Notes under the pieces: generated by a model | Seen by the model: the letters and a program-made list of their open reading frames with translations, nothing else | Told to the model about the DNA's origin: nothing | Database searches by the model: none | Origin: an uncultured archaeon | GTDB taxonomy: Archaea > Asgardarchaeota > Thorarchaeia > Thorarchaeales > Thorarchaeaceae | DNA length: 13,844 bases | Direction of reading: 5' to 3' | NCBI GenBank assembly: GCA_964590575.1 | Contig: CAZPWM010000083.1 | Location: forward strand, 1 to 13,844 | Program-made: the position numbers and the translations under genes | Part shown: positions 1,936-13,844 of the stretch, piece by piece | Numbering within the stretch: the stretch's first letter is position 1 | Layout of the letters: the number at the start of each line of letters is the position of its first letter

Positions 1936-2241
1936 TCAATCCAGTTTGTGAACTTTCTTTATGCCAGCACCTTCGTGTTTAATGTCGGTCACGCGAGAAA
2001 CAATGAAGTCAGAGAGTCCATACTCCGCCTCCTCAACATAACCGTGAACTATCACTTTCATACCAATCCGAGGGAGGAATCTGTGCTTATCCATGACACC
2101 AGAGGAAAGTCGCACATTATACGTCTGACCTGTTTCCTCGTGTTGCACCACAATATCAGTTGTCCCATACCATCTACGAGATGACACTTGGGTTGTTTTG
2201 CTCTTGCCAACCTCTCGAATGATTCCCCTAATCACAGTCAA
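1936..2241 (-). CDS. Small OB-fold-like hypothetical protein
   Basis: Beta-rich pattern VIRGIIREV...YNVRL...RIGMKVIVHGYVE...FIVSRVTDI is typical of OB folds. The TTG start overlaps the EndoQ TGA stop (TTGA, 2238-2241). Confidence 0.65.
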   Translation of the reverse strand: MTVIRGIIREVGKSKTTQVSSRRWYGTTDIVVQHEETGQTYNVRLSSGVMDKHRFLPRIGMKVIVHGYVEEAEYGLSDFIVSRVTDIKHEGAGIKKVHKLD

Positions 2242-3515
2242 CGCTTTTCACATTCCCATGGAGGTATGAGTGAACCATATCGACCACCGCCACCAATTAC
2301 ATATCCTATCGATTTAGTCCGATATGCTTCAATCATCTGAGCCACTCGTTCATTTTTCGCTCTTATTTCTTCTATAGGGGTTTCAGTAAGGATGAGTGTT
2401 TCGGGGCCGAATTGTTCTCGCATTTTGTCATAGAGAAACCTTACCTGTTTCGAAGTGGAGGATTTCACATCAAGAGAGAGTGCAATAATATCTAAGAGTG
2501 GTGCAATGTGTATGTAAGGTGGACGATGAGAAGGAGTTATTACTTCTCCATCTCCTATTGCAGCCGCACGGTCGTTAACTCCAAGTCTGAGTTTTTTGCC
2601 ATCAGCTGGACATATCACCTTCCGTTGGTGGATTTCGTCTAGAAGACGCTTTTTTTCTGCGGAATTCTCACAACTAATGTAAATATTCAAGTCATCGAAA
2701 CTTGGTGGTTCGTTTCCATATTGTACAATTAGGGTCCTCCTGCAACTTGAGCAGAATGACAAGAAATACTTGCCAAGCCTAGGATCAAGTCCAACATTCA
2801 GCACAGGTTTCCGTTCATTCTTGCGGATGATTGCACGCTTGAGTTCATCAAATGTGGGTTTCATCATCTCAAACCTCACAAATTCTCGGCCGAGTTTGTT
2901 TGGAGACGGAGAGTGTGCGTCGCTGGATGTGATGAATGTAAGACGCCTGAGATCAGGAATGAAGTCTGCTGTATTGGAGTCTGCTGAGAGACCCAACTCT
3001 AAGAAATGGATATAGGGAGTTTCACTACCGTAACATGATTTCAGACTTGTGTGTTTATTCTCTCGAAAGATAGACCTAAACGGGGTAAATGCATGTGCTG
3101 GTCCTATCATTCCACCGGCGTCTCTGACTAGTCCTGCAAGCGTTTCACCATATACTCGTACTCGTGGGCGTCCGCCCCACTCATCATCGATATTGGGAGA
3201 ATGTGATTTCAGGGTTTTTCTCAGTGCTTCTACAGATTCAAAATCAGGGAGAACAATGAGATGATGGATTGACTCGTTGTCTTCAATCTCGACAGTAGGG
3301 ATGAATGAAATAGAGTCATGGGTCAGTATATCATCCTTTAAGACGAGGTTCTTTCGAAGGTGTCTAAGCCAATCTGGTTGAGTAGCATCACCGGTTCCAA
3401 TTAGGTGCAATCCCTTTTCATTGGCACCTTGAGCGAGCATTGGAATGGTCATGTTTTTACTTACACCAATTGAATGCAATGAATGGATATGCAGATCCGT
3501 ATCGAATAGAGGCAT
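2238..3515 (-). CDS. endoQ: Endonuclease Q family (PHP phosphoesterase with Zn ribbon, TIGR00375/COG1379)
   Basis: DLHIHS, GTGD, EIED...IHHL, GPAHAFTP, ELGLSADS, SDAHSP..LGRE, GLDPRLGKY, RPPY..IAPL and GGGGRYG are collinear with Thermococcales EndoQ as recalled. SD GAGGT upstream. Confidence 0.92.
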   Translation of the reverse strand: MPLFDTDLHIHSLHSIGVSKNMTIPMLAQGANEKGLHLIGTGDATQPDWLRHLRKNLVLKDDILTHDSISFIPTVEIEDNESIHHLIVLPDFESVEALRKTLKSHSPNIDDEWGGRPRVRVYGETLAGLVRDAGGMIGPAHAFTPFRSIFRENKHTSLKSCYGSETPYIHFLELGLSADSNTADFIPDLRRLTFITSSDAHSPSPNKLGREFVRFEMMKPTFDELKRAIIRKNERKPVLNVGLDPRLGKYFLSFCSSCRRTLIVQYGNEPPSFDDLNIYISCENSAEKKRLLDEIHQRKVICPADGKKLRLGVNDRAAAIGDGEVITPSHRPPYIHIAPLLDIIALSLDVKSSTSKQVRFLYDKMREQFGPETLILTETPIEEIRAKNERVAQMIEAYRTKSIGYVIGGGGRYGSLIPPWECEKR

Positions 3516-7791: not shown

Positions 7792-8052
7792 ATGCTATTC
7801 GTTTGCAGAATGTGCGGAAAAACCTCCGCAGATATCGATATGGTCTTGGAAGGTGCATGCAGTTGCGGCTGTTCTCATTTTCAACTAGTGTCTGAAGACC
7901 GTTCGGAATTCCCAAAGGAGATAGATGAGAAGGAATCGATTAGGAGAGACTTGCACAGATGGCTTGACTTGAATCTTGATTCAATGCCGCCACACGTAGT
8001 GGGAAACATACGTGTTCTTTTTGAAATCGAGAAGGACAATGCTACTTCATAA
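7792..8052 (+). CDS. Zn-ribbon protein, OapC/DUF2072-like N-terminus
   Basis: CRMCGK...MVLEGACSCGCSHFQLV resembles the OapC-type C..CG...L.GC..CG...F ribbon. SD-like GAGGCG upstream. Confidence 0.65.
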   Translation: MLFVCRMCGKTSADIDMVLEGACSCGCSHFQLVSEDRSEFPKEIDEKESIRRDLHRWLDLNLDSMPPHVVGNIRVLFEIEKDNATS

Positions 8053-8058
8053 TTTGCT

Positions 8059-10680
8059 TCATTCTATCATTGATTCTTGTTCCAGAGGTCTCTCAATACG
8101 AGCTATCTGATCCTCGATCTGTACGTGAAGGTCAGTCTTACCGGCGACATTAGCAATTCTCTGAACTGCCTTCAAACTGTGAATTAACGAGTCAAGCCAC
8201 GAGAAAAGATCTCCAGGATATGCCCAGAGCTCAAAATCATCGTGAAGTTTTTGAGCGAGCCCAGAGGGATTATAACCCTCTTTTCTCCGCTCAACAAGCC
8301 ACCGCCCCAGACTGACTTTTCCGTGATCACATTCTGGATAGTCGCGGCAACCACAATTGAAGAAAGTCGTAGTCCACTTACCAAATACCTCGAAGACCCA
8401 CTGTGGAAGTCTTCCGGCTCCACTCTTTGGTCTACTTGCGTCACCTATCTCGCTAAACACACCTGAGAAGAGACGGGTTGGCATATGCGTCCGGAAAGCT
8501 GAATTAATTTCCTCCTGCATTTTAGCACTTAGGTAAATATTCTCGAATGGTTCGAGCATTATTGCAATGTCTGTTACATCATAGGTAGAAGTTAGCTTCA
8601 TGACCTCCAAGCCCATACTAGGAGTTAAGAATGAGAGAGATGTAGCCCGTCCAAGGTCAGTTGGATGAACACCACCTTCTTTCACACGAACCATATGCGT
8701 GCGAACAAGATGTTTGAGAGCTTCGGATGGTGGAACGGACATTGAAAGCATCCGTTTGTATGCGCGAGCTACCTCCTTGAGATCAACAAGACCTGTTGAG
8801 CAAATGGTGGCGAGTATTTGTTCGGCACAAGTTTCTTTGTCTGCAAAAGGTTCTACATCCTCAATAATTCCATTCAGTAGTTCTACTGCAATTTCATCCT
8901 CTGTTTTATCCTGACCACCGTGATACTTCCTTTCAGGCTGGACAATGAGGTAAACCTTACCTCGATCATGCTTACCAAGGCGACCAGCCCTTCCAAGCAT
9001 CTGCTCAAACTCTGCAGTTGACAACCACTCCGCACCCATCGCTAAAGTTTCAAAAATGACTTGTGAAGCTGCTAAATCAACACCTGCACCAAGTGCAGCT
9101 GTTGTCACTATACTCGAATAACGTTGTTTAGCAAATGAATACTCAGTCTTGCGTCTGCGAGAGTAAGATAGACCTCCGTGGTAAACAGACGTTGAAACGC
9201 GCTGTTCTCTAAGCCAATCGCTTAGAGCATGAGCGCGGCGTCTTGAATATGTGAAAATGATGGATTGTCCCTTGTTTCCTGAACTACTGACATGACGAAA
9301 CTCCTCATTGACAAGACGACGAATCATGGATCGTTTTTCCTCATCAGAGCGGGCAAATACTAGATGTCGTTCCAATGGAACGGGTCGACCCTCATAGTTA
9401 ACGAGTTTCATTTGGAGTTCCTTTGCTAGGATCTGAGGTGACCCAACGGTGGCAGACAATGCGAGATACTGTGCCTTTGGATAGTGCATCCGCATCCGAG
9501 TGAGAAGTCCATCAAGTTCAGGACCTCGCTCAGGATCAGCCAGATTCTGTATCTCATCGATTACAACAGTACCAATATCTCCAAGGTCAGATGTGTTACC
9601 TGATCGGAAAATGAGGTCAAGAGCTTCATAAGTCGCACAGACAATGTTGGCTTTCGAAATATCTGTATCAACAATGGGCTTGCCTTCATCGCCAACATCC
9701 AAACGAGACATTCCCACCTTAATACCAACCCTTAGTCCGAGTGACCTGTAACGCCTACGAAATTGCTCATACTTCTCATTAGTCAACGCCACTAAGGGAG
9801 ACATATAGATCATCTTCTTCCCCTGCATGGCTTTTTGAACACCCGCAAGCTCACCTAAAAGTGTCTTACCTGATGACGTAGAGGACACTATCAACATGTT
9901 GACATCTTTGAAGAGTCCGGCATCTATAACCTGAGACTGTATAGGTAGTAGTATCTTGAAGCCATCAGAAGCGAGCTGCTCCTTGAATTTTTCTGGAATC
10001 GGGAGATCAGATATCTTTCTAGTCCCACCATCTTCTTTGGCTACTACAGTATCAATAAGCGTTAATTCTGGTTCTCTCGTAGGGTCAAATCCAGGACTCA
10101 TCATCTCAACAAGTCGTGGTATTGACTTCACCTTGGTGACCTGTCGCTCGAGCTGATTCATCATGGCTCGAGAGAGATGAATACCTAGAGTTTTCAACTC
10201 GACCTGAAGGTCCACTTGTGCGCAACTGGTACAAGTAACTTGATTTTTACTTATTTTAACTGCATTACGGCGTGTCAATATCGTGAGTCGATCGTTGCGA
10301 AGACAGTGCTGACATGTGGGTACAACCCGCGGCTTTTCCGTATTCAAGCGAGATAGCATATCTTTGAGGTCTTTGAGAAAATCTGGTTTCTGTTCTTTCG
10401 GAATAATGATGTGTTTAGCGTTTCTGATTATATCATGCGCTTCCTTGGGCTGAAAATAAAGCGGCTTATTATATTTGACAAACCAAAAGCGCTTAATTTC
10501 CATGAGGCCTGATTCACGGCGACCGTATTCCACCATACCTCCAAGTATAGAACGTTGACGGTTTCGCAGGACATCAGAAAAAATATCTACTCTTGTTGTC
10601 AGCTCTTGTCGTCCAGTCCTGAATACTAGTGTATAGGGCTTTCTGAGCTGTTTCTGTATGTCTGCATCAGCAATTTCCAA
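8059..10680 (-). CDS. Archaea-specific Ski2-like SF2 helicase (ASH-Ski2 / COG1202 / DUF5814-containing)
   Basis: Q motif LLPIQ, motif I TSSGKT, Ia PLVAL, II DEIQ, III SAT, YHGG, V ALGAGVD, VI QMLGRAGR. N-terminal CQHC...CTSC and C-terminal CGCRDYPECDH are typical of the family. Confidence 0.92.
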   Translation of the reverse strand: MEIADADIQKQLRKPYTLVFRTGRQELTTRVDIFSDVLRNRQRSILGGMVEYGRRESGLMEIKRFWFVKYNKPLYFQPKEAHDIIRNAKHIIIPKEQKPDFLKDLKDMLSRLNTEKPRVVPTCQHCLRNDRLTILTRRNAVKISKNQVTCTSCAQVDLQVELKTLGIHLSRAMMNQLERQVTKVKSIPRLVEMMSPGFDPTREPELTLIDTVVAKEDGGTRKISDLPIPEKFKEQLASDGFKILLPIQSQVIDAGLFKDVNMLIVSSTSSGKTLLGELAGVQKAMQGKKMIYMSPLVALTNEKYEQFRRRYRSLGLRVGIKVGMSRLDVGDEGKPIVDTDISKANIVCATYEALDLIFRSGNTSDLGDIGTVVIDEIQNLADPERGPELDGLLTRMRMHYPKAQYLALSATVGSPQILAKELQMKLVNYEGRPVPLERHLVFARSDEEKRSMIRRLVNEEFRHVSSSGNKGQSIIFTYSRRRAHALSDWLREQRVSTSVYHGGLSYSRRRKTEYSFAKQRYSSIVTTAALGAGVDLAASQVIFETLAMGAEWLSTAEFEQMLGRAGRLGKHDRGKVYLIVQPERKYHGGQDKTEDEIAVELLNGIIEDVEPFADKETCAEQILATICSTGLVDLKEVARAYKRMLSMSVPPSEALKHLVRTHMVRVKEGGVHPTDLGRATSLSFLTPSMGLEVMKLTSTYDVTDIAIMLEPFENIYLSAKMQEEINSAFRTHMPTRLFSGVFSEIGDASRPKSGAGRLPQWVFEVFGKWTTTFFNCGCRDYPECDHGKVSLGRWLVERRKEGYNPSGLAQKLHDDFELWAYPGDLFSWLDSLIHSLKAVQRIANVAGKTDLHVQIEDQIARIERPLEQESMIE

Positions 10681-10735
10681 CCTATAGGCCTCTTCCGAGA
10701 AGCACTACATTGCACCAAAGACTCTTGTGGTTGCA

Positions 10736-11512
10736 TCAAAGTTCGTAGATATAGGACTCTTTCTCTTTCTCAACAATAGACAGAGTTCGTTCGAGCTCTT
10801 CACCGATAGCTTCCATTCCGGTCTTTGAGTCCATTCCAGCCTTTTCAACGATCATCCAATCAGACATCACATCAATATCGATAAAACTACTAAATTTATT
10901 GAAAGGTGTCGCCATTACCTTTGTTCGTTCCTTATGCCAATACTTACCCTCATTAAAATATTCTACAAAAGATTTGTACATCGGACCATTCGTCCCTGCG
11001 AGAATGAATTTTGCACGCTGTAAACCAGATATATGTGAAACATTGATTCGCGCAAAGATTTCTTGGTAATGTACAGTGTGGGGGAGATTAGCCTTTGTTT
11101 GGACTGTAGCTAGAGGTTCAGCAACGAGAACATTTCCTTTTTCCTTTACCAGATTACGAATGATAGTGACAATCTCCTCTTGTTTTCGCGTACCTAGAGG
11201 ATCGATGACTTCAGGATTGACGATATCTACCTGCGGTAATGGTTCATCAAAGCGAAGCTTTGTTGGATCGAAAATGAGTGCTGAAAGATATTCGAGAACA
11301 TCGACCTGTATTTTCCCTTTAGTCGCTACACCTTTGAATATTCCAGGACCGATAAGAACAGAATAAACACGAGTTCCCCGAATGATTGACCAAAGCTGAT
11401 TAGATAAGATAAGGGCTTTCCCCTTTAAGTCAGCATCTTTGAAAGCGCCAACCTGAAAATTATAACTCTCAATGTCGATTAACCAATAGAGAGGTGTTTG
11501 AATAAAACTCAA
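10736..11512 (-). CDS. Hypothetical protein, 258 aa (alpha/beta)
   Basis: Long ORF that tiles the strand. The TTG start overlaps the upstream TGA (11509-11512). No motif recognised. Confidence 0.75.
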   Translation of the reverse strand: MSFIQTPLYWLIDIESYNFQVGAFKDADLKGKALILSNQLWSIIRGTRVYSVLIGPGIFKGVATKGKIQVDVLEYLSALIFDPTKLRFDEPLPQVDIVNPEVIDPLGTRKQEEIVTIIRNLVKEKGNVLVAEPLATVQTKANLPHTVHYQEIFARINVSHISGLQRAKFILAGTNGPMYKSFVEYFNEGKYWHKERTKVMATPFNKFSSFIDIDVMSDWMIVEKAGMDSKTGMEAIGEELERTLSIVEKEKESYIYEL

Positions 11513-12696
11513 GATGCATCCACTCGGTAATAGTTTGTATTGACAAAATCATAAATTATCGATACGGAGAGTGTGGCTCTCTCAGCTTCAGGTGCGTTTG
11601 CTATTGTAGCCTTGGAATTCTGAATTACCTCTGCTATATGAGTGCCAACCAAATTGAGTCTGTCAACTAGTTCAGTCAAGCATTTCTCTACGCTTTCAGC
11701 ATGTGTGTTCTCCTGATATTTCAAGACGCGTAGCACACGGCTAATTTTTTCCTTGAGATATTCTTCTCGCTCGTTGACTTTCCGCCTTTTTGTCAATTTG
11801 ACATCACGCTCAAGAAAATCAAAAGGAGAAGATAGATCTGGTTCAGCTTTATTCCCTCTGGTTGAAGTGACACCAATGGAAACATATGGAGCCCTATCGC
11901 CTCTTCCAGTGGTTGGGCGGGGTGCGAGTTGAAGTAGAAAATGAGAAACTGCTCTCAGAGTCATTTCATCAAAGGGAAGTCCCAACTCTTCAATCAGCGT
12001 ATCAATACGAGCGATGGACACATCCATTGTAAAGGAATCAGAGGGTGCAAGTAGGCGTTCTCTGAGAACTCTGAAAAGAGCTTGAGTTCTTCGCTGCACT
12101 TGTATAAATTTGCCATTCAGCGTACTTGTGTTCCATTTTGTTAATCCTTGACCAAACGAGATAAGGACATCCTTGCTTGTGGCTTTGGGATGTTCCTTAT
12201 ACCATTCTTCAATGACCGGGGCAATTATTGTTTCAGACATCTTTGTCCTCGATGCTATGATTGAGAGAGCTTTTTCAACTTCGATAGAGGTTTCTTCAAC
12301 ATCCTCTTCTAGATTCCCAAGTCCTCGAACCTGAATCTCGATCTGCCTTACAAAACTTCCATAGATATGAGATATCCATCGTCCTTCAATAAGTGCGAAT
12401 TCCATGATATTTCCGGGCAGATTGGGAATGTCCTCAGCAACTGTGGCTCTTCTCTGAAGCTCTGCGCTTAGAAGCCTTACCGCTTGTTTAACTCCCATGA
12501 TTCCATCCATATTAATCAGATATGCAACCATCGCTATCTCCAAGGGACAGGACAATTCTTCAGAAATTCTCCGTGCATCTGCTTCCGGCACTCGCCTCAC
12601 ACGCTCTCTCAAATTAGCGTATTTGTCAGCGAATTCTTGAACCAGCTTCTGACGACTTTCAACAGCTAGTTTCTTAATATCGGGTTCAAGTAGCAC
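11509..12696 (-). CDS. Hypothetical protein, 395 aa (largely alpha-helical)
   Basis: Long ORF with SD GAGGTATCTG 3 nt before GTG, amphipathic helical pattern, and a distinctive block RGNKAEPDLSSPFDFLERD. Confidence 0.82.
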   Translation of the reverse strand: MLLEPDIKKLAVESRQKLVQEFADKYANLRERVRRVPEADARRISEELSCPLEIAMVAYLINMDGIMGVKQAVRLLSAELQRRATVAEDIPNLPGNIMEFALIEGRWISHIYGSFVRQIEIQVRGLGNLEEDVEETSIEVEKALSIIASRTKMSETIIAPVIEEWYKEHPKATSKDVLISFGQGLTKWNTSTLNGKFIQVQRRTQALFRVLRERLLAPSDSFTMDVSIARIDTLIEELGLPFDEMTLRAVSHFLLQLAPRPTTGRGDRAPYVSIGVTSTRGNKAEPDLSSPFDFLERDVKLTKRRKVNEREEYLKEKISRVLRVLKYQENTHAESVEKCLTELVDRLNLVGTHIAEVIQNSKATIANAPEAERATLSVSIIYDFVNTNYYRVDAS

Positions 12697-12830
12697 GTGC
12701 AGATACCTCTTATCCCAAAGACTTGCTCTCCGCTATGGAGTAGCAAAACTAGTTCGGAGAGTGGCTAAATAACGGTATTTCGTTCATAATGAATCGAAGA
12801 GAATGAAGGCAAGCATTACTGATGGATTTC

Positions 12831-13031
12831 TCATGCGCCACCAGACAGGAGTAGGAAGTGTATACCAAATCCTAGTAAGATTGATGCAAGGAACAATGCA
12901 GAACCAACCTTGAACCTTGAGAAGTGGCGTCCATGTTCAATGTGAATGACTAACCATGCCGCAGCAAAAATACCTAAGAAAATGAACACGAGTGAAATAG
13001 GAAAATATAATCCTTCGAATCCTTGGAGCAT
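12831..13031 (-). CDS. OST5/TMEM258-like small two-TM protein (oligosaccharyltransferase accessory subunit homologue)
   Basis: LGIFAAAW and ASILLGFGIHFLLLSGG align by eye with recalled human TMEM258 IGMFFTAW and ASLFMGFGVLFLLLWVG, with similar spacing and size. SD GAGGCG at 13043-13038. Confidence 0.8.
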   Translation of the reverse strand: MLQGFEGLYFPISLVFIFLGIFAAAWLVIHIEHGRHFSRFKVGSALFLASILLGFGIHFLLLSGGA

Positions 13032-13061
13032 ATTATTCGCCTCTTCTTACTTATAGGGGTC

Positions 13062-13082
13062 CGAATTCGTTTCTAATTTAAA
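13062..13082 (-). promoter_or_regulatory. Candidate TATA box for the OST5-like gene
   Basis: TTTAAAT (13082-13076) lies about 45-50 nt upstream of ATG 13031, leaving room for the SD-containing leader. CGAATTCG palindrome at 13062-13069. Confidence 0.45.
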
Positions 13083-13087
13083 CGTTA

Positions 13088-13844
13088 TCACGCTAAGAAA
13101 TCATACTCAAGCGTATAATCCTTGTCATCGATTGACACAACGCGGACTAATTTTCCTCGCTTTTTAGCAAGACGTCGTTTTTCAGAGAAACTCAGAGATG
13201 GATCATCGGGAATCTCAATATCTTCAATGACGAAATTATTACGGGCTGTAATATTCTTCGTTTTAGGGTTAATCTTGTCTCTAAGGTCTGGTATAAATGT
13301 GTCAAGAATGTATTCTAGAATCTCTGGTGTGTTTCCCAGAGAGCCTTTAATGAAGACAGGGTCCTTCTCCTCAGTTTCCTCACTTTCTTCTTTAGGACCC
13401 CCCTTTGGAAATGAGGTCTTTGTAACAATCTGCCATGGTTTGGTCCCGGCTCGAGGGGTTAGCGAGAGAAGGTAGAAGGTTGTTGGGTCATCGAGATCAA
13501 AGAGTGCTTTGATATCAGCGATAGGTGCAACCTCATCCAATTTAGCCTTGAAAACTGGAGCACCCTTGCCTTGCGATTTCTTCCAAGTGATGGGCATATT
13601 CAGTTGACCGAATTCTTTGGTTCGATCACTGTAAGTAATCAACATACCTTTCACTTTGTGAGACCCATCAGGAGCACCCAAAAGATATCCCTTAAGGATA
13701 GTTTTCTCCTGATCGAGATCAGCCTTGAACTTTAAGCTTGCTTTACTGAGAGTAATCTTTGTTCTTGGACCAGGATGATTACCAATTCCGTATTTCACCA
13801 ATCTTGCGTGTGTAAACTCATCAGGTGTTCCTTTGATTATCTTA
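13088..13844 (-). CDS. Conserved archaeal hypothetical protein, 5'-truncated by the window edge
   Basis: The frame stays open upstream of the TTG at 13801 (KIIKGTPDEFTHARLVKYGIG...), so the true start lies beyond 13844. C-terminal block F.IEDIEIP...R..AKKRGKLVRVVSIDD...YDFLA. Confidence 0.82.
   Translation of the reverse strand, partial: KIIKGTPDEFTHARLVKYGIGNHPGPRTKITLSKASLKFKADLDQEKTILKGYLLGAPDGSHKVKGMLITYSDRTKEFGQLNMPITWKKSQGKGAPVFKAKLDEVAPIADIKALFDLDDPTTFYLLSLTPRAGTKPWQIVTKTSFPKGGPKEESEETEEKDPVFIKGSLGNTPEILEYILDTFIPDLRDKINPKTKNITARNNFVIEDIEIPDDPSLSFSEKRRLAKKRGKLVRVVSIDDKDYTLEYDFLA

Follow-up and report, generated by a model that had tools for sequence, protein, structure and literature searches.

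The 13,844-nt stretch of Thorarchaeia DNA considered here (the window) carries, close to one of its ends, a short open reading frame that a preliminary description had read as a stand-alone archaeal homologue of Ost5/TMEM258, a subunit of the oligosaccharyltransferase (OST) that, to our knowledge, was long regarded as eukaryote-only. Two questions arise from this locus: does it encode a genuine member of this family and, if so, what could the protein do in an archaeal cell? The plus-strand frame of 12831–13031 is closed by many stops and the coding frame is on the minus strand; it gives the 66-aa protein with two hydrophobic segments that had been announced and contains both of the stretches then quoted. 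The gene, its putative signals and its two neighbours are located as follows.

12831..13031, minus strand: ost5, ATG to TGA, encoding a 66-aa protein (P0001) that is almost certainly an Ost5/TMEM258 homologue (ORF, Pfam PF05251, TMEM258 in the PDB, pN/pS)
13040..13043, minus strand: GAGG, putative Shine-Dalgarno site, −12 to −9 relative to the ost5 ATG
13077..13082, minus strand: TTTAAA, putative archaeal TATA box, about 46–51 nt upstream of the ost5 ATG
13088..13843, minus strand: upstream neighbour of ost5, 251+ aa, truncated by the contig end (256 aa in locus L014), syntenic
12765..12782, minus strand: CGAAATA..TTATTTAG element, conserved, 50–65 nt past the ost5 stop, putative promoter of the downstream gene
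11509..12696, minus strand: downstream neighbour of ost5, 395 aa, no confident family, syntenic

Comparison of ost5 with 23 orthologues gave pN/pS values of 0.10–0.36 (median 0.21), which indicates purifying selection, and the variable columns of the orthologue alignment at codon positions 1, 2 and 3 amount to 39, 19 and 59, each out of 61. Because pN/pS is low and third codon positions are the most variable, ost5 is a real protein-coding gene. It is also conserved and single-copy, the family profiles giving one Ost5 match in this genome; two PF05251 matches on other contigs (C151 and C20; E 0.01 and 0.06, in long frames) are not recovered by these profiles and were rejected.

The gene had been credited with its own TATA-like element and Shine-Dalgarno site, and both motifs were located upstream of the start and recur in the genus. 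The TTTAAA is found upstream in 22 of 24 orthologous loci (window counted; these kin are not independent), for a background of 335 out of 56,624 60-nt genome tiles (0.6%) that cover coding and intergenic DNA alike, and GAGG occurs within the last 30 nt before the start in 20 of the same 24 loci, window counted. Downstream of ost5, TTATTT(A/G) is present within 150 nt in all 24 loci of the genus. This conserved element resembles the promoter of the next gene, which suggests that ost5 is probably transcribed alone, as its own unit. A sigma-70 promoter scan was disregarded, as it is not applicable to archaea. Two metatranscriptome runs contain 5–6% of the words, and one contig in X1 spans 12855–12956 with 13 differences; given these differences, it belongs to a relative and provides no evidence for transcription of this ost5.

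The upstream neighbour, ost5 and the 395-aa gene follow each other in this order in 24/24 loci of the genus and in 52 of the 56 loci found by a scan of the genome collection with an archaea-only profile (A3, whose patterns are biased towards Thorarchaeia), all the named ones being from Asgard archaea. In other families, the upstream neighbour also adjoins ost5 in L032 and L034 and the 395-aa gene does so in L033. Neither Pfam nor NCBIfam contains a family matching the upstream neighbour, and a third conserved flanking gene (10736–11512, minus strand) has no confident family in either. The 16 other ORFs of the window that were scanned gave no match to the Pfam families of STT3 or ribophorin, in keeping with the reported lack of aglB and ribophorin genes there. 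The word 'stand-alone' also holds more widely: the nearest neighbours (one to four genes; the Ost5 protein alone in L082 and L086) scanned in 20 ost5 loci across the phylum include no gene for an OST subunit. Genes for S26 signal peptidases lie at most two genes from ost5 in 3 of these 20 distant loci (L070, L072, L084) and an Alg9-like glycosyltransferase gene is close to it in one. Elsewhere in the window are found an 873-aa DEAD/DEAH helicase with DUF5814 (8059–10680, minus strand; Hel308-like by NCBIfam, below cut-offs), a small zinc-ribbon protein (7792–8052, plus strand) with a weak match to the origin-associated protein OapC (E 0.001, below cut-off) and a TIGR00375-family PHP-type protein (2238–3515, minus strand; E 3.5e-78, below cut-off).

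The Ost5 protein shows two Kyte-Doolittle peaks (19-residue windows) of 2.52 (start 11) and 2.21 (start 44–45), separated by a polar, basic loop. AlphaFold, run on an alignment of 55 sequences, predicts a hairpin of two helices (residues 9–33 and 39–63; mean pLDDT 91.3), which can be placed on the gene as follows.

12933..13007, minus strand: predicted helix 1 (model and hydropathy), residues 9–33, with transmembrane segment 1; G20 and W26 conserved
12909..12944, minus strand: His/Arg/Lys-rich stretch, residues 30–41, at the end of helix 1 and in the loop (conservation across alignments)
12843..12917, minus strand: predicted helix 2, residues 39–63, with a GFG motif at residues 54–56 (12864–12872) common to human TMEM258

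H30, H33 and H36 are invariant in 55 close homologues; this cluster is conserved within Thorarchaeia and variable in distant Asgard orthologues, only G20 and F55 reaching at least 90% conservation phylum-wide. Conservation along helix 1 has a periodicity near 105 degrees that fits one conserved face, contacts within the hairpin and contacts with a partner not being separable in this signal. In eukaryotes, both termini of Ost5/TMEM258 are outside and the loop is cytoplasmic. By the positive-inside rule, R35, R39 and K41 would likewise place the basic loop of the archaeal protein in the cytoplasm.

Several searches bear on the identity of the protein. The best Pfam family is PF05251 (E 1.6e-5), matched by residues 8–65 over profile positions 11–70 of 73, with a score of 25.5 bits that is below the gathering cut-off (27.4); DUF350 comes second, with E 0.036 and 49 of its 133 positions covered, and NCBIfam gives no match at E 0.01. 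PF05251 is matched by 54 of 55 close homologues. Its cut-off is passed by phmmer relatives P0053, P0058 and P0063 (27.7, 30.0 and 35.4 bits) and by the profile-linked Asgard orthologues of L076–L078 (33.6–45.3 bits). With the single sequence, the best match in the PDB is human TMEM258 (E 0.007), which is also the best match of the archaea-only profiles, from the narrow A1 (E 0.016) to A3 (2.8e-6) and the widest, A4 (4.5e-11, the next match having E 0.038). The link to TMEM258 thus becomes stronger as the profile widens. The members of A4 were collected by sequence and profile searches starting from P0001, without the use of Pfam; P0057 and P0064 (repeat artefacts), P0067 (partial) and P0065 and P0066 (long N-termini) were left out of the Ost5 alignments.

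Comparisons of folds go in the same direction. TMEM258 chains are ranked first and second by Foldseek (TM 0.79 and 0.73; E 0.085 and 0.18, not significant), TMEM258 and yeast Ost5 take the first three ranks in VIA-align (Z 9.2, 8.8 and 8.8), and the top cluster in the ESM Atlas is Ost5 (score 0.93), with PF05251 on 46% of its members. As hairpins are common, the agreement in fold is weak by itself: the Foldseek E values are not significant and a designed helical protein reaches Z 8.5. Taken as a whole, these data indicate that the 66-aa protein is almost certainly homologous to Ost5/TMEM258, as first described, with support from sequence, profile and fold and with no unrelated family giving a better match; the human TMEM258 residues that the description had given agree with the aligned PDB chain. 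Its remark that automated annotation could miss such a protein is right only in part: databases call these proteins 'hypothetical', 'MnhC' or 'DUF350', but many of the entries have a precomputed PF05251 match.

The family occurs in 24/25 genomes of the genus, 48/48 of the family and 183/201 of the phylum, nearly always once, and the named close relatives are from Ca. Thorarchaeota. The 18 phylum genomes without an Ost5 match include two single-contig ones (G052 and G095) and those of two families (f15, 0/3; f20, 0/4), which may reflect either divergence or true dispensability. Two or three matches are found in G035, G057, G089, G186 and a few others, with two distinct loci in G057. In another family (f22), the homologues are longer (150–166 aa; P0065 and P0066, encoded by L073:4781–5275 and L083:5074–5550) and have, ahead of the hairpin, a hydrophobic segment at the N-terminus and a linker rich in Thr, Glu and Asn.

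The protein resembles human TMEM258 (6S7O chain C) and yeast Ost5 (6EZN chain E) in being a two-helix hairpin, in the structural match over 62–66 residues, in the G..W pattern of helix 1 and the GFG of helix 2, and in having a ribophorin I partner encoded in the same genome. It differs from them by its length (66 aa, versus 79 for TMEM258 and about 85 for yeast Ost5) and by a low identity in structural alignments (24–32% with TMEM258, about 10% with yeast Ost5). Unlike TMEM258, it has a His-rich loop, and it would sit in the archaeal cell membrane.

Homologues of Ost5/TMEM258 in Asgard archaea are not a new finding. The available part of Eme et al. 2023 (PMC10307638) describes them in most Asgard classes and reports the homology and distribution of OST5, not its binding, whereas the available part of PMC8993221 attributes Asgard Ost5 to a 2017 paper. 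Supplementary Table 3 of PMC10307638 has at least 235 OST5/PF05251 rows, with some unlikely long proteins among the first 30; at least 28 OST5 rows share the loop motif, all labelled Thorarchaeia or Thorarchaeota among the matches listed. One of these proteins, from SMTZ1-45 (locus L088), is identical to P0001 at 58 of 65 positions (89%) and syntenic. Published Asgard Ost5 proteins already include near-identical sequences from Thorarchaeia, and the present gene, another genome's copy of the same family without substantive difference from the candidates of Eme et al. 2023, adds nothing new to that report. In the literature searched, where subscription journals are poorly covered, no test of Asgard Ost5 binding was found.

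What the protein could do depends on its possible partners. These were sought in the same genome, which is 91% complete, and the two that had been expected, STT3/AglB and ribophorin I, are indeed encoded there, on other contigs. STT3/AglB is encoded on contig C8 (profile E 1.6e-48; 908 aa, L008:6767–9493, minus strand) and carries the motifs WWDYG and DEGKWPWM, of the type given in the accessible text of PMC11284389 for STT3/AglB of Loki- and Thorarchaeia. Its two close sequons, N565 and N569, may be the double sequon that the accessible text of PMC8993221 describes in Asgard/TACK AglB and eukaryotic STT3. About 3.5 kb from STT3 lies a gene for a 139-aa protein of the Ost3/6 family (E 2.4e-10; L008:12981–13400, minus strand), which matches the PF04756 profile in its membrane part only. 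We take this membrane-only protein to resemble DC2/OSTC. The same locus has a 1103-aa ORF (L008:1546–4857, plus strand) whose N-terminal half is long, acidic and of low complexity and whose C-terminal region is LAGLIDADG-type endonuclease-like by eye.

Ribophorin I is encoded by a single ORF on another contig, located as follows.

L051:3947..6925 (G000:C19, about 7946..10924), plus strand: Thorarchaeia ribophorin I, 992 aa (profile-based domain layout)

It was reached by tblastn from the matches of relatives. A direct search with Pfam Ribophorin_I was empty; the absence of ribophorin I that this would have implied was rejected, the empty search being a false negative resolved via these relatives. 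The tail of the protein matches the OST1 domain of MK-D1 (8WHN, E 8e-6), and a ribophorin I profile with other Asgard sequences (A5) matches human RPN1 (3.8e-32) and yeast Ost1 (2.6e-18), a result that is partly circular, as A5 was seeded partly with Pfam Ribophorin_I matches. Divergent from this gene lies a glycosyltransferase family 4 gene (L051:2718–3755, minus strand; PF00953, E 1.5e-27), presumably AglH/Alg7-like.

In the Thorarchaeia ribophorin I, the core is preceded by three further regions, namely a DOMON-like one (E 5e-5), an FKBP-type PPIase domain at residues 148–231 (E 9e-8) and a Big_7 domain. The FKBP stretch is present in 83/88 aligned homologues and the core in 60/61 genomes of the family; the protein reaches about 990 aa, versus about 580–720 aa in the other Asgard frames examined. 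In NCBI, several of these proteins appear under FKBP-type isomerase names, and an annotation as FKBP isomerase alone is frequent. By eye, a conserved glutamine (Q168) occupies the position that we take to be that of the catalytic aspartate of FKBP12, so that the module may act as a chaperone and lack isomerase activity. No description of a DOMON/FKBP fusion to Thorarchaeia ribophorin I was found in the literature searched. Among 40 of the at least 142 ribophorin I rows of Eme et al. 2023, a single one is from Thorarchaeota, and its protein is a 452-aa fragment that lacks the FKBP part.

Across the 201 genomes of the phylum, ribophorin I is found in 192, both proteins in 174 and neither in none, all 18 genomes without an Ost5 match having one to ribophorin I; as both are near-universal, this co-occurrence fits a partnership and is otherwise uninformative. 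Compared with the eukaryotic OST, Ost4, DAD1, OST48 and ribophorin II have no match in the genome, the same searches having matched no control genome either. The available text of Eme et al. 2023 (PMC10307638) restricts subcomplex III (DAD1, OST48 and ribophorin II) to Heimdallarchaeia. A match to TRAP-beta was also observed (C70:3238–3528, plus strand, L067; E 1.4e-5, above cut-off), inside a 561-codon open frame. A comparable set is known from Prometheoarchaeum syntrophicum MK-D1, for which the available part of Carilo et al. 2024 (PMC11417166) models a Sec61/OST/TRAP translocon that also has Asgard OST1, OST3/6 and STT3; its main text, as available, uses neither 'OST5' nor 'TMEM258'. The OST1 of MK-D1 has about 607 aa, whereas that of Thorarchaeia, with about 990 aa, has DOMON, FKBP and Ig domains in front.

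Since the genome encodes STT3/AglB, a membrane-only Ost3/6-family protein and ribophorin I, a reduced multi-subunit OST is likely, by analogy with the eukaryotic enzyme. The following model can be drawn for the part played by Ost5. The 66-residue protein would form a membrane hairpin with its two termini outside the cell and its basic loop in the cytoplasm, as in the yeast and human structures. This hairpin would pack against the single membrane helix of ribophorin I (Ost1), at residues about 806–823, giving the equivalent of 'subcomplex I', and would help to seat ribophorin I on the STT3/AglB oligosaccharyltransferase. Its role would be structural and non-catalytic, namely to stabilize Ost1 and to contact lipids at the interface with STT3, again by analogy with yeast and human, within a reduced OST of the cell membrane made of STT3, Ost1, Ost5 and a DC2-like Ost3. 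In yeast, according to the accessible part of PMC7226087, both helices of Ost5 pack on the single helix of Ost1 and lipids bridge its helix 2 to STT3; yeast does not require the protein, whose function that review gives as 'not clear'. Taken together, we consider that Ost5 probably helps to dock Ost1 onto STT3/AglB in this way.

Three other explanations have to be weighed against this docking role. The first, which we regard as unlikely, is that a true Ost5 homologue acts outside an AglB complex; it could, for instance, form with ribophorin I a scaffold for the translocon or for ribosome docking. AglB would then work alone, as in most archaea, and the eukaryotic OST would have recruited the Ost1–Ost5 pair later. 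That the genes are unlinked, with ost5, the ribophorin I gene and the STT3 gene each on a different contig, is in line with this, but the accessible text of PMC11284389 describes agl genes as dispersed in an Asgard genome, so that a lack of linkage is to be expected. The binding of ribosomes by the cytoplasmic domain of MK-D1 OST1, described in the available part of PMC11417166, also favours such a scaffold, as do the signal peptidase genes close to some distant ost5 loci and the lack of matches to Ost4 and subcomplex III in the genome, for which the controls are uninformative. Conversely, the presence of STT3, an Ost3/6-family protein, Ost1 and Ost5 together in one genome argues for the AglB complex, and so would the N565/N569 pair if it is the double sequon shared by AglB of Asgard/TACK archaea and eukaryotic STT3, as given in the part of PMC8993221 available.

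The second explanation, a role proper to Thorarchaeia in which the His-rich loop (H30, E32, H33 and H36) would bind a metal ion or a lipid head group on the cytoplasmic side, accounts for the invariance of the three histidines among close homologues; it is nevertheless very improbable, given the absence of the cluster from distant Asgard orthologues and from TMEM258 and the restriction of strong phylum-wide conservation to G20 and F55. Such a loop function is compatible with the docking of Ost1. Finally, that P0001 is an unrelated small membrane protein of the MnhC, DUF350 or LysE type, whose Ost5 match is an artefact of hydrophobicity, is barely credible: the database names, the matches of 8/55 members to DUF350 (best E 8.2e-5) and of 1/55 to LysE, and the sub-threshold Pfam score of the single sequence speak for it, but nearly all members match Ost5, which fits in length and over its full extent, and A4 favours TMEM258 by nine orders of magnitude, MnhC-type PDB chains scoring E 0.11 or worse against A1, A3 and A4.

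The docking of Ost1 by Ost5 may be extended, more tentatively, to a minimal, OST-A-like enzyme of Thorarchaeia with four subunits, namely STT3, a DC2-like membrane-only Ost3, Ost5 and the ribophorin I with its fused extracellular DOMON and FKBP domains. If this is true, peptidyl-prolyl isomerization or chaperoning of the emerging chain would be directly coupled to N-glycosylation by a single polypeptide, and Ost5 would belong to the core of the ancestral Asgard OST as a near-universal subunit. That a multi-subunit machine for N-glycosylation is older than eukaryotes is a published view, to which the occurrence of Ost5 in 183 and of ribophorin I in 192 of the phylum's 201 genomes lends support.
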